Both the position numbers and the translations under genes were made by a program. A stretch of 64,000 nt of DNA. It comes from Escherichia phage vB_Eco_F25. Under the pieces are notes generated by a model, which saw only the letters and a program-made list of their open reading frames with translations, ran no database searches and was not told where the DNA came from. Of this stretch, positions 39,932-43,515 are shown one piece after another (positions within the stretch are counted from its first letter, which is position 1; each line of letters begins with the position of its first letter). The stretch lies in the sequence record OP870144.1. One strand, 5' to 3'.

Positions 39932-40402
39932 TTAATCATGTGTCCACACCCCATCGGTATTTGACCAAAGTCGCTGATTATCTGATCCTCGCCACAGCTT
40001 TTTAGTCGGAAGATTTTTCTCATACTTCCCATCAATAATAACATCAACATATTTAAGCATTTCTAGTTGTTTAATATCTTCAAACTTATATCCTGTCCAC
40101 AACCAAATGCTTTTATTGGGATAAAGATTTTTAATAGTTTGAACCACAGAGTGAATCACGTCTCTGTTATCAGGATAAAGAGGGTCTCCTCCAGTTATAG
40201 TTAATCCTTCTATATAATCATTATTCAAACATTCAATTAATTGTTCTAATGTTTCACCAGTGAATGGAATACCATTTCTAGCATTCCATGTTGATTTATT
40301 ATAACACCCTTCGCATTTATGCAAACATCCAGTAACGAAAAGAACTGTCCTGCATCCAGGACCATTAACAAAGCAGCACGGGTATATTCTGTCATAATTC
40401 AT
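39932..40402 (-). CDS. nrdG: Anaerobic ribonucleotide reductase activating protein (radical SAM)
   Basis: 156 aa, same as T4 NrdG; MNYDRIYPCCFVNGPGCRTVLFVTGCLHKCEGC. Confidence 0.9.
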   Translation of the reverse strand: MNYDRIYPCCFVNGPGCRTVLFVTGCLHKCEGCYNKSTWNARNGIPFTGETLEQLIECLNNDYIEGLTITGGDPLYPDNRDVIHSVVQTIKNLYPNKSIWLWTGYKFEDIKQLEMLKYVDVIIDGKYEKNLPTKKLWRGSDNQRLWSNTDGVWTHD

Positions 40403-41231
40403 TTATATATTTCCAATTATAGCCTTCAACACTTTTACGTTCGCCATTTAAACATTTTAAAATATTTCCTTTGCTAGAAATATTAAAATATTTTGCTGCG
40501 TCTGGTATATAATTAAATGTTTTTAAAAGAACACCATCTTTATATGCGCCAAATAAATTAAGAGTATATTTTTCTCGAAGACGCTGATGTTTCCTTTTCA
40601 TAACCTCAGGATTTGCATACGCCAACTTCAATGAATTTCTGTGTTTTTCTTTTACTTCAGGTTTTTGCATTGCTAACTTAGTTAGCCTGGAAATTTTATT
40701 TCTAACTTCGTCAGTTTTCATTGCATTTGACAAATTTAATAAAGTTTTATTTCTAACTTCAGGTTTTTGCATTGCTAACTTAGTTAGTTCTCTATGTCTT
40801 TTTCTAAAATCGTCATCCTTCCATATATTTTTCGATAATTTTGACATAGAGCGGTGAAATAATTCCTTTTCACTGGAATACAATTTAAAAATTTCATCCA
40901 ATTCATCCGCATTAAATCTATCGGTATTCAAGTTTATCATTCTATGAAAGGCATAACACATTTTACTATTGCTTGTTTTAGCTAAATAGTAATGAGCTAA
41001 CGCATGGTCATAATATGACAAATTAACAATATTCCATTTATCTGTTTTATATTCAGGAAATATAGATTTGGGAAGCACGTGATGTGCTTCCGTTTTTCCT
41101 TTTATTTTAGGATTATTATAATTTTTTGTTATCAAATCAACATATGACAATAGTAAATCATTATTTTCTTCAAATATTAAAGCTAATTTATCATTCACAA
41201 AATCGCAAGGATAAAATCTATCATAATTCAT
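40392..41231 (-). CDS. HNH homing endonuclease (free-standing) between nrdD and nrdG
   Basis: 279 aa; HNH motif EAHHVLPKSIF...YYDHALAHYYLAK; repeated LTKLAMQKPEV(R/K)NK modules; first 13 codons mimic the nrdG start. Confidence 0.8.
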   Translation of the reverse strand: MNYDRFYPCDFVNDKLALIFEENNDLLLSYVDLITKNYNNPKIKGKTEAHHVLPKSIFPEYKTDKWNIVNLSYYDHALAHYYLAKTSNSKMCYAFHRMINLNTDRFNADELDEIFKLYSSEKELFHRSMSKLSKNIWKDDDFRKRHRELTKLAMQKPEVRNKTLLNLSNAMKTDEVRNKISRLTKLAMQKPEVKEKHRNSLKLAYANPEVMKRKHQRLREKYTLNLFGAYKDGVLLKTFNYIPDAAKYFNISSKGNILKCLNGERKSVEGYNWKYINEL

Positions 41232-43045
41232 TGGTGTTTAACCCTATGCATGATTTCTTTATTTTTGCCGAGATTAAATCCGCGTTCGTTCGGATTCCCC
41301 AAATAACCGCAAGTTCTTCTTATTGTGTTCATCTTTTTAGGATCAGTTTCTCCACAGATAGAACAAACAAATCCGTTTTCAGTAGGAGTCATTTCATGAG
41401 TACTTCCGCATGTAAAACATTTATCTACTGGCATATTAACACCAAAATAATCTAAATGTTGTGCAGCATAATCCCATACGGCCTCAAGACCCTTTAAGTT
41501 ATTTTTCATATCAGGAAGTTCAACATAAGAAATGTGACCACCTGTCGCAATGAAATGATATGGCGCTTCACGAGAAATCTTTTCAAACGGAGTAACATTT
41601 TCTTCTACTGAAACGTGGAAACTGTTAGTGTACCAGCCTTTATCGGTAACATCTTTTACACTTCCATATTTTTCGGTATCGAGTTTACAGAAGCGATAAC
41701 AAAGGTTTTCAGCAGGAGTAGAATACAAGCTAAAAGCAAATCCGGTTCTTTCAGTCCACTGCTTAAGATGAGCATTCATTTTAGTTAAAATTTCTTGTCC
41801 AATGTCACGACCGACAAGAATATTCAATTCATGAATACCAATGTATCCTAAAGACACTGAACTTCTACCGTTTTTAAATAACTCAATTATGTCGTCATCA
41901 GGTTTAAGACGAACCCCGAATGCACCTTCTTGGTAAAGAATAGGAGCAACAGTCGCTTTAACTCCTTTTAAGGAACTAATTCTACACATCAATGCTTCAA
42001 AACATAAATCCATTCGTTCATTGAATAATTCAACAAATTTCTGTTCATTGAACTGTGTTCCAATATAAGAATCTAACGCAATGCGAGGAAGATTTAGTGT
42101 TACAACGCCAAGATTATTACGTCCATCAAGAATTTCATTACCAGTCGAATCTTTCCATACACTCAAGAAACTGCGGCAACCCATTGGAGAAACAGGAATA
42201 GATGAGCCGGTGATAGCTTTATTGTTCTTAGCTGAAATAATATCAGGATACATTCTTTTGCTTGCGCACTCTAGAGCAAGCTGTTTAATATCATAGTTCG
42301 GATCGTCTTTATAAAGATTAACACCTTCTTCAACAAACATAACAAGCTTAGGGAAAATAGGAGTTATCCCATCACGACCAAGACCGTTAATACGATTTTT
42401 CAGAATTGCTTTCTGAATCATTCGTTCAGTCCAGTCAGTTCCCGTACCAAATGTAATTGTTACAAAAGGCGTTTGTCCGTTTGAACTAAAGAGAGTATTT
42501 ACTTCATATTCATAAGCTTGGAATGCATCGTATACATCTTTTTCTGTTTTAGATTGAGCATAATTCAACGCATCAGCGATTTGCCATTTTTCTGCATCCT
42601 CAATATGTTTTGCATAGGTGCGTTTAACATAAGGAGAAAGTACTTTATCTACATTAGCAAAAGTCGTTCCGCCGTATTGATGGGAAGCAACCTGTGCAGT
42701 AATTTGTGCCATAATTGCAGTAGCAACTCCAATTGATTTAGGAGTTTCAATCTGTGCATTACCAAGCTTAAATCCGTTCTCAAGCATTCCTTTTAAATCT
42801 ACTAAACAACAATTAGTAAATGGAAGAGCAGGGGAATAATCAATATCGTGGAAATGAATAATTCCGCTTTCATGCGCTTTCATAATAAAAGACGGGACCA
42901 TATTTTTGGCAATGTGTTTAGACACAATACCAGCCATAAGGTCCCGTTGAGTTGGAAAAACACGAGAATCTTTATTAGCATTCTCGTTTAAAAGGTCTTT
43001 ATTAGTTTTATGAATCAATCCTTCAATTTCTTTTTCAATTGTCAT
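41228..43045 (-). CDS. nrdD: Anaerobic ribonucleoside-triphosphate reductase (glycyl radical enzyme), uninterrupted
   Basis: 605 aa; C-terminal glycyl radical motif RRTCGYLG and CxxC pairs; no intron-like interruption. Confidence 0.93.
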   Translation of the reverse strand: MTIEKEIEGLIHKTNKDLLNENANKDSRVFPTQRDLMAGIVSKHIAKNMVPSFIMKAHESGIIHFHDIDYSPALPFTNCCLVDLKGMLENGFKLGNAQIETPKSIGVATAIMAQITAQVASHQYGGTTFANVDKVLSPYVKRTYAKHIEDAEKWQIADALNYAQSKTEKDVYDAFQAYEYEVNTLFSSNGQTPFVTITFGTGTDWTERMIQKAILKNRINGLGRDGITPIFPKLVMFVEEGVNLYKDDPNYDIKQLALECASKRMYPDIISAKNNKAITGSSIPVSPMGCRSFLSVWKDSTGNEILDGRNNLGVVTLNLPRIALDSYIGTQFNEQKFVELFNERMDLCFEALMCRISSLKGVKATVAPILYQEGAFGVRLKPDDDIIELFKNGRSSVSLGYIGIHELNILVGRDIGQEILTKMNAHLKQWTERTGFAFSLYSTPAENLCYRFCKLDTEKYGSVKDVTDKGWYTNSFHVSVEENVTPFEKISREAPYHFIATGGHISYVELPDMKNNLKGLEAVWDYAAQHLDYFGVNMPVDKCFTCGSTHEMTPTENGFVCSICGETDPKKMNTIRRTCGYLGNPNERGFNLGKNKEIMHRVKHQ

Positions 43046-43515
43046 TTTAAACTCTTTCTAAGCTGCTTCTTAAATGAAGCTATTAACTGTGTTTTGGTGT
43101 CAGATTCATTATATTCAAATCCTCTTTGAAGCATCTCAGCCATCATTTCCTCTTTTCCTAAACGAGAAAATTCCTTTGATTTATCTCCAACAAAGTTAGG
43201 GTGAATATTATTTTGGGTGTAATCGGATTTTAAGTAAGTAAGTAAATTTTCTAACCATTCAAGATAATCAACCCCTTGTCCCTTTAAGCCAGAACGATTA
43301 AATTTATGTTTCATTTGACCTTCTGCGGCATTGCAGAGATTACAAAGCAATCCACGCACCTTTCCTGCTTTTGGTCCATTTAATTCATGGTCATGGTCGA
43401 GGTGATTAGCTTGAACATCAGGATTTAGTTCTCGTTGGCAAATTAAGCATTTACCGTTTTGTGCATCATAAAATTTCTGTTTTTCTTCTTTATATAATTT
43501 GCCAGTCAATAACAT
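43042..43515 (-). CDS. 49: Endonuclease VII (Holliday junction resolvase)
   Basis: 157 aa, same as T4 gp49; CLICQRELNPD...LCNLCN zinc-binding motifs. Confidence 0.9.
   Translation of the reverse strand: MLLTGKLYKEEKQKFYDAQNGKCLICQRELNPDVQANHLDHDHELNGPKAGKVRGLLCNLCNAAEGQMKHKFNRSGLKGQGVDYLEWLENLLTYLKSDYTQNNIHPNFVGDKSKEFSRLGKEEMMAEMLQRGFEYNESDTKTQLIASFKKQLRKSLK

Follow-up and report, generated by a model that had tools for sequence, protein, structure and literature searches.

The window, as we call the stretch of DNA analysed here, comprises 64,000 nucleotides (nt) of Escherichia phage vB_Eco_F25 (OP870144.1), a T4-like phage of the genus Tequatrovirus. Its minus strand carries, in this order, gene 49, nrdD, an open reading frame (ORF) of 279 amino acids (aa) predicted to encode an HNH-type homing endonuclease, and nrdG. 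Phages such as Paracelsus, Jbel and UFV-AREG1 match a 3.2-kilobase (kb) query from this region with 98% identity. In the window, nrdD is an uninterrupted ORF without an intron, as a preliminary description of this DNA had held. The gene coordinates given in that description are also correct, as are the two overlaps that would permit translational coupling: the ATG of the endonuclease and the stop codon of nrdD overlap as ATGA (41228-41231), and the endonuclease shares its last 11 nt with nrdG (40392-40402). The TGA stop codon of the endonuclease is formed by nrdG codons 3-4, inside the new nrdG start. The features of the locus, in the order in which the minus strand is read, are as follows.

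43042-43515, minus strand: gene 49, endonuclease VII, the first in the gene order.
41228-43045, minus strand: nrdD, large subunit of the anaerobic ribonucleotide reductase, 605 aa (Pfam NRDD, 4.8e-171; Gly_radical, 1.4e-25).
40392-41231, minus strand: ORF of the HNH-type homing endonuclease, 279 aa, identified by PHROG matches.
41192-41231, minus strand: captured leader, corresponding to resident nrdG nt 1-40 (ATG plus 13 codons, encoding MNYDRFYPCDFVN), with which the endonuclease ORF now opens.
40363-41191, minus strand: inferred mobile cassette, 829 nt, consisting of endonuclease codons 14-279 and the replacement nrdG nt 1-40.
40363-40402, minus strand: replacement nrdG 5' end, encoding MNYDRIYPCCFVN; it is the 3' end of the cassette and gives the ATG that nrdG now uses.
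40392-40402, minus strand: overlap of the endonuclease and nrdG, ATGAATTATGA, 11 nt.
40373-40391, minus strand: recoded block ('CC' block), 8 substitutions within nrdG nt 12-30, resulting in F6I and D10C.
40347-40362, minus strand: inverted repeat GTCCTG-GATG-CAGGAC, which encodes the conserved GPGCR motif and lies directly 3' of the insertion point.
39932-40402, minus strand: nrdG, radical-SAM activating protein of the reductase, 156 aa (Fer4_12, 1.4e-48; Radical_SAM, 1.2e-7).

The endonuclease and nrdG start alike. Their first 41 nt match in register at 31 positions, and the N-termini, MNYDRFYPCDFVN in the endonuclease and MNYDRIYPCCFVN in nrdG, have 11 of 13 residues in common. Among all 41-mers on both strands of the window, the next best match to the nrdG start reaches 23/41, so the similarity pointed out in the preliminary description is real. 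A repeat search independently recovers the two copies (40363-40403 and 41192-41232) as direct repeats of 41 nt with a spacing of 829 nt.

Which of the two copies is the resident one becomes clear from endonuclease-free relatives. In Tequatrovirus these were RB14 (GenBank) and seven IMG/VR contigs (L007-L013), in which nrdG directly follows nrdD and starts with ATGAATTATGATAGATTTTATCCTTGCGATTTTGTKAATG followed by GYCCTGG. Nucleotides 1-40 of the endonuclease match RB14 at 39/40 positions in the window and at 40/40 in phage PST; past nt 40, Tequatrovirus carriers continue with ATAAATTA in place of GTCCTGG. In the window, nrdG behind the endonuclease starts with ATGAATTATGACAGAATATACCCGTGCTGCTTTGTTAATG followed by GTCCTGG; this start matches RB14 at 32/40 positions, the 8 differences all falling within nt 12-30, and nt 41-471 of the gene are identical to RB14 at 426 of 431 positions. 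Klebsiella phages, in which a native ORF of 77 aa lies between nrdD and nrdG, provide the same comparison a second time, with Roth76 and two IMG/VR contigs (L019, L025) as endonuclease-free representatives and Roth67, SmallBear and KP01 as carriers. The endonuclease-free nrdG starts with ATGAATTTCGACAGAATCTACCCTTCTGACTTTGTGAATG followed by GCC (one position differs in Roth76). The endonuclease leader of the carriers matches these alleles at 39-40 of 40 positions and then runs into ATAAGCTA, while nrdG behind the endonuclease starts with ATGAACTATGATAGAATATATCCATGTTGCTTTGTGAATG followed by GCC. The leader agrees with the carriers' own downstream nrdG start at only 29/40 positions, and nt 41-140 of Roth67 nrdG are again of the local type (95/100 identical to Roth76).

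Between the two genera, the local endonuclease-free alleles disagree at 10/40 sites. The carried copies of the two specify one and the same peptide, MNYDRIYPCCFVN, and differ at 6/40 sites, all of them synonymous, a divergence in keeping with the 84.7% nucleotide identity of the endonuclease itself between the genera. By this allele comparison, the leader is in each genus the recipient's own nrdG start, and the start that nrdG uses now is a foreign copy. Since the leader follows the local allele while the nrdG start is foreign in both genera, the foreign DNA corresponds to a block of 829 nt in the window; the cassette measures 826 nt in the Klebsiella phages (Roth67). The flanking sequence reverts to the local endonuclease-free type right at both cassette boundaries, which can be placed only to about 10 nt, within nt 30-41 of nrdG, because TTTGTKAATG is common to both repeats.

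These results turn the initial interpretation around. The endonuclease copy had been taken for the diverged one, and it is nrdG's own copy that diverges. Likewise, the ORF does not come with an nrdG-like 5' leader of its own: lacking a start, it is fused in frame to the first 13 nrdG codons of the recipient, and the insertion site lies within the nrdG coding sequence instead of at the nrdD/nrdG junction. It had also been suggested that the element carries or duplicates the start of its target gene. The start is indeed duplicated, as the comparison of junctions with and without the insert demonstrates, and the same comparison reverses the polarity of the copies, the carried one being the cassette 3' end that becomes the new nrdG start. 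The preliminary description was thus right in kind and wrong in polarity and exact site. Its view of the gene as free-standing is borne out by the presence and absence of the gene among near-identical phages and by an Rfam scan, in which no intron or other Rfam family was matched in the region.

Two further candidates for expression signals were considered. An internal alternative start of the endonuclease was rejected: codon 12 reads GTG in the window and GTT in PST, and there is no ATG ahead of the HNH motif. A promoter for nrdG inside the endonuclease was rejected as well, since a sigma-70 scan, which did not extend to T4 middle and late promoters, found 15 sites versus 17 expected, that is, the background level. 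In KP01 (comparison sequence L055, around 1520-1530), a 2-nt insertion (TA) creates a TAA directly before the nrdG ATG, with loss of the 11-nt overlap and of residues NEL.

The 279-aa protein matches PHROG 655 ('homing endonuclease', 2.9e-36) and PHROG 12434 ('HNH endonuclease', 1.2e-14). No HNH model in Pfam-A or NCBIfam was matched by it, and a PDB sequence search returned nothing relevant. Three regions can be recognized in the protein.

40980-41096, minus strand: HNH catalytic core TEAHHVLPKSIFPEY...WNIVNLSYYDHALAH, residues ~46-84.
40644-40787, minus strand: two repeated helical modules ..TKLAMQKPEV.., encoded by a 42-nt direct repeat, 90% identical, with a spacing of 102 nt.
40416-40529, minus strand: C-terminal NUMOD1 / I-HmuI-like helix-turn-helix region, residues ~235-272.

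The HNH motif is present in the correct spacing (EAHHVLPKS..WNIVNL..DHALAH), and residues H50, H51, N67, H76 and H80 are invariant in an alignment of 7 homologues extending down to 27% identity. The core is related to that of T4 MobC (37% identity over 59 aa, E-value 5e-7 in BLASTP), which in turn matches the HNH region of IscB (1.4e-6). An AlphaFold model, built on a shallow alignment of 8 homologue clusters, contains the strand-strand-helix arrangement at residues 47-51, 68-72 and 73-84 with a predicted local distance difference test score (pLDDT) of ~90. The helical modules, which we take to be NUMOD3-like, are probably part of a putative DNA-binding region. In a metagenomic variant, P0002, exactly 34 aa (102 nt) are missing at the module repeat, which fits a deletion between the repeats. 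For the C-terminal region, the matches to PF22083 (2.4e-4, 21.1 bits versus a cut-off of 27) and PF07453 (5.7e-3, 17.3 bits versus a cut-off of 22.8) are both below the gathering score; the last 23 aa align with the C-terminus of T4 MobC with a score of 58 versus 22.7 +/- 4.5 in shuffles. Relatives encoded at other loci, including the EP01 gene between genes 47 and 46, mobD, P0004, P0007 and P0008, have unrelated N-termini of their own, without the nrdG-like leader. This was one of two observations on which the preliminary description had staked its interpretation, expecting no such N-terminus in relatives elsewhere, and the expectation held in the EP01 gene, P0004, P0007 and P0008. The EP01 gene (L003, 2474-3328) encodes a 284-aa paralogue with 36% identity. 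Copies of this paralogue are found in many Tequatrovirus records at ~33-35 kb, with no copy matched in T4 records, and it is truncated or frameshifted in RB51 and RB68.

Same-locus copies of the endonuclease gene were found in 31 GenBank records, 21 of them from Tequatrovirus (97-99.6% identical) and 10 from Klebsiella phages (~86%). The locus itself is present in roughly 840-1000 records, several hundred of which are endonuclease-free. Flanks of carriers and non-carriers are 96-98% identical, and carriers differ from each other in nrdD, PST having the I-TevII intron that the window lacks. The boundaries are identical in both genera, to ~10 nt, though the flanks are only about 70-77% identical between them. 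When the window phage is compared with Roth67, the ratio of nonsynonymous to synonymous divergence (dN/dS) of the endonuclease is 0.08, with a dS of 0.86, over 265 codons, whereas dS is 1.5 for nrdG, 2.0 for nrdD and saturated for gene 49; the dS of the endonuclease is thus about half that of the flanking genes. The low dN/dS and a dS below that of the neighbours point to purifying selection on the endonuclease and to its transfer between the lineages after their split, and they fit a functional, horizontally moved gene.

The nrdD-nrdG gap is a known site of mobC and segH, and segH replaces mobC in some genomes (2022 preprint). T4 mobC, a free-standing gene for a 210-aa HNH protein, occupies the same locus in the same orientation as the 279-aa gene, with the same ATGA overlap and the same 11-nt overlap with nrdG. 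The two proteins end in ..WKYKDEL* (T4 MobC) and ..WKYINEL* (279-aa protein), the last 48 nt of the genes matching at 34/48 positions, and T4 mobC also starts with nrdG-like codons (MNYDRIY). Despite the same position and overlaps, only the 59 aa of the HNH core and the last 23 aa can be aligned between the 210-aa and the 279-aa proteins, and the best match to the latter in T4 by tblastn is mobD, not mobC. Orthology with mobC, implied by the label in PST, was therefore rejected for want of full-length similarity. By its sequence, the 279-aa protein is a positional analogue and distant relative of T4 MobC, not mobC proper. The mobC leader is decayed and follows no local allele. With a 3-nt gap, which it requires, it aligns to nrdG up to GTTAAT; mobC thus appears to be inserted at the same point, behind a leader that has decayed. 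T4 nrdG contains a long foreign tract, unlike the window element with its tight boundaries. The T4 gene (NC_000866; L005, 4447-4917) is a mosaic in which nt 101-300 share 88-95% identity with Klebsiella phage Roth76 and only 53-59% with other Tequatrovirus alleles, while nt 301-471 are of the Tequatrovirus type (98-100%); this looks like a foreign tract of ~300 nt acquired together with mobC.

The segH gene of RB5 lies in the same gap, and the nrdG start behind it is again the recoded one (MNYDRIYPCC). Unlike the 279-aa gene, it belongs to the GIY-YIG family (TIGR01453, 3.6e-13). Its insertion point falls in the nrdD tail, ~24 nt before the nrdG ATG; its stop codon overlaps this ATG by 4 nt, and it makes no use of nrdG codons. 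The segH ORF begins at codons displaced from nrdD, ATGCATAGG, and the C-terminus of nrdD, ..KEMVKRVKHA*, is restored by an insertion of 17 nt, GGTAAAACGAGTAAAAC. This arrangement appears, from the junction sequences, to be the mirror image of that of the 279-aa gene. In the RB5 record (KM606995; L047, 861-1726), segH is labelled 'segD' with an annotated start downstream of the GIY-YIG motif; the full ORF begins at ATG 896 within ATGCATAGG, the native nrdD codons Met-His-Arg. The nrdG annotation of this record is also truncated, starting at LHKCEG. The junction of Salmonella phage vB_Sen_BCPSen_003 (L048, 860-1620) is a mosaic in which an nrdD tail rebuilt in the segH manner occurs together with what is left of the native tail (GGTTAAACACCA), a mobC of the T4 type and the recoded nrdG start; it points to a past exchange of endonuclease occupants at the locus.

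The haplotype of 8 substitutions at nrdG nt 12-30 is thus found behind segH in RB5 and behind mobC in BCPSen_003 in addition to the 279-aa gene; T4 is without it. A search with a 100-nt synthetic junction, endonuclease-free plus recoded block, yielded ~448 full-length junction matches, and only three of these, U5, ESh24 and ERS-1, were endonuclease-free records with the block. The block is therefore strongly, although not exclusively, linked to occupied loci. The sole IMG/VR match to a pattern for the Cys-Cys allele (L046) was an unrelated GC-rich sequence and was discarded as a chance match. In U5, ESh24 and ERS-1 (L049, L050 and L051, around 630), the recoded nrdG start comes directly after the native nrdD tail. 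This structure is the exact product expected of a crossover within ATGAATTATGA in a carrier, and these phages may be either cassette-loss derivatives or the ancestral donor lineage. We propose the block as a candidate determinant of cleavage resistance.

Taken as a whole, we consider it probable that the locus contains a homing-endonuclease cassette of 829 nt inside the first 40 nt of nrdG, which combines capture of the nrdG start, a rebuilt nrdG and an active homing enzyme. The insertion architecture, start capture, rebuilt nrdG, kept overlaps, purifying selection and horizontal distribution all emerge from the comparison of related genomes. The cassette has no start codon, its ORF being fused in frame to the recipient's nrdG ATG, which overlaps the nrdD stop codon, and 13 codons, and the recoded copy of nrdG nt 1-40 at its 3' end rebuilds a complete nrdG. 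According to this model, translation of the endonuclease would depend on termination at the nrdD stop and reinitiation, a coupling that first served nrdG, and nrdG would in turn be coupled to the endonuclease by termination-reinitiation at the 11-nt overlap. The active HNH enzyme would cut endonuclease-free nrdG at or next to the sequence coding for F-V-N-G-P-G-C-R, at about nt 30-56, and repair of the double-strand break from a carrier genome would copy the cassette in with almost no co-conversion of the flanks. The 8 substitutions in nt 12-30 would make the rebuilt gene a poor substrate and, by lowering the homology between the repeats, would also reduce loss of the cassette by recombination. 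We infer cleavage and homing by the 279-aa protein, as well as the protective role of the recoded block, from sequence.

The inverted repeat adjoining the insertion point, GTCCTG-GATG-CAGGAC, falls in nrdG codons 14-22. It has perfect 6-bp arms, is followed by a T-rich run and is terminator-like by scan; it is also kept in the endonuclease-free alleles of both genera. It may be a coding coincidence, a target feature or an attenuator, and its position makes it likely the right half of the putative target site.

Several points weigh against the cassette model. The fold-level comparison of the HNH domain gave a weak result. The recoded block is not exclusive to the 279-aa gene and may be a naturally occurring, linked allele instead of an adaptation for protection. 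SegH reportedly cuts its own genome in addition to endonuclease-free ones; self-protection at the nrdD-nrdG locus therefore need not exist. The element is also rare: scans of IMG/VR and JGI metagenomes with the endonuclease protein gave no new insertion context, the matches being endonuclease-free loci recognized through the 13-residue leader and one unrelated partial match. Furthermore, a dS of 0.86 implies that the transfer between genera was not recent. Finally, T4 mobC, the positional analogue, is listed with activity not determined and target unknown (Edgell review, PMC2988022).

Most of these points favour an alternative that accepts the architecture and denies its mobility. The element would then have been passed on vertically or by general recombination and lost repeatedly, the endonuclease would be inactive or have another role, and the block, found as it is at segH and mobC loci and in three endonuclease-free phages, would be neutral. 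The rarity of the element, with no further copies in the IMG/VR and metagenome scans, the dS between the genera and the lack of demonstrated activity for T4 mobC (PMC2988022) all agree with this scenario. Nevertheless, we regard it as unlikely. The low dN/dS over 265 codons and the invariant catalytic residues argue for selection on the protein, boundaries shared to ~10 nt by two genera with 70-77% identical flanks are hard to obtain via general recombination, and the endonuclease dS is about half that of its neighbours.

According to a second alternative, the endonuclease natively starts with its own diverged nrdG-like leader, which moves as the 5' end of an element inserted at the junction, and the nrdG start is resident. 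The leader of T4 mobC, ATGAATTATGACAGAATCTAT..., could be cited in its support, since it exactly matches no sampled local allele and is shared by T4 and BCPSen_003, whose flanks differ, so that it may travel with mobC. For the 279-aa gene, however, the leader equals the local allele at 39-40 of 40 positions in each of two genera whose alleles show differences at 10/40 positions, and it is the nrdG start downstream that is foreign to both backgrounds, which makes this alternative very improbable. Chance similarity, or convergence imposed by overlap and coupling signals, can be practically dismissed: the stop-codon overlap constrains the first 11 nt, ATGAATTATGA, in both contexts, but it accounts neither for a match of 31/41 against a maximum of 23/41 elsewhere in the window nor for a leader near-identical to endonuclease-free nrdG well past the overlap.

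In the literature, the free-standing endonuclease genes of T4-like phages are assigned to the spaces between genes, and their products often cleave at a distance of hundreds of bases from the gene that encodes them; the targets of most mob genes are unknown (PMC2988022). Free-standing HNH cassettes in conserved coding sequence, accompanied by extra sequence that preserves host function, are likewise represented by mobE in nrdA of Aeh1 and by T4 mobA with gene 60/39 (cited in PMC2988022). There, the host protein consists of two polypeptides or depends on ribosomal bypassing. Unlike in those cases, the element brings along a duplicate of the first 40 nt of nrdG that makes the gene complete again, and the displaced fragment would serve only as the translation start of the endonuclease. 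Integrative elements that target transfer RNA (tRNA) genes carry a replacement tRNA 3' end and follow the same logic, in that insertion occurs in the gene, a carried copy restores it and a direct repeat is left. They differ in using a site-specific integrase versus break-and-repair homing, in acting at the opposite gene end and in not reusing the displaced copy as a start codon. A full-text literature search, which did not cover the likeliest source, Sandegren et al. 2005, found no precedent of start capture by a free-standing endonuclease.

Labels of the 279-aa gene in databases vary. The PST record uses 'mobC', those of Jbel and Ozark have 'hypothetical protein', and most others give 'homing endonuclease'; in UTI-K1 the gene is apparently labelled as a second 'activating protein', probably owing to the nrdG-derived leader. 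The analysis thus exposes inconsistent annotation at this locus, of the 279-aa gene (mobC, hypothetical or 'activating protein') as well as of segH, given as segD with a truncated start in RB5.

It is conceivable, and we suggest it tentatively, that start capture combined with a rebuilt gene end is a general, undescribed route by which free-standing endonucleases enter coding sequence without an intron or intein. Under this suggestion, recoding would confer resistance to cleavage, the HNH gene, mobC and segH would be variations on the theme, and the mobC-type target would lie in nrdG at about nt 10-60. For the cassette studied here, natural replicates in two genera fix its ends to ~10 nt inside a conserved coding sequence. 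They also lead to a specific target prediction, the FVNGPGCR-coding stretch of nrdG, and single out 8 substitutions within 19 nt as a candidate resistance polymorphism. If the cassette model is true, a cassette devoid of initiation signals would take over the start and the coupling of its target and repay them with a recoded duplicate of the gene end, which would account for how such an element can reside within an operon of overlapping genes without breaking the expression of either neighbour.

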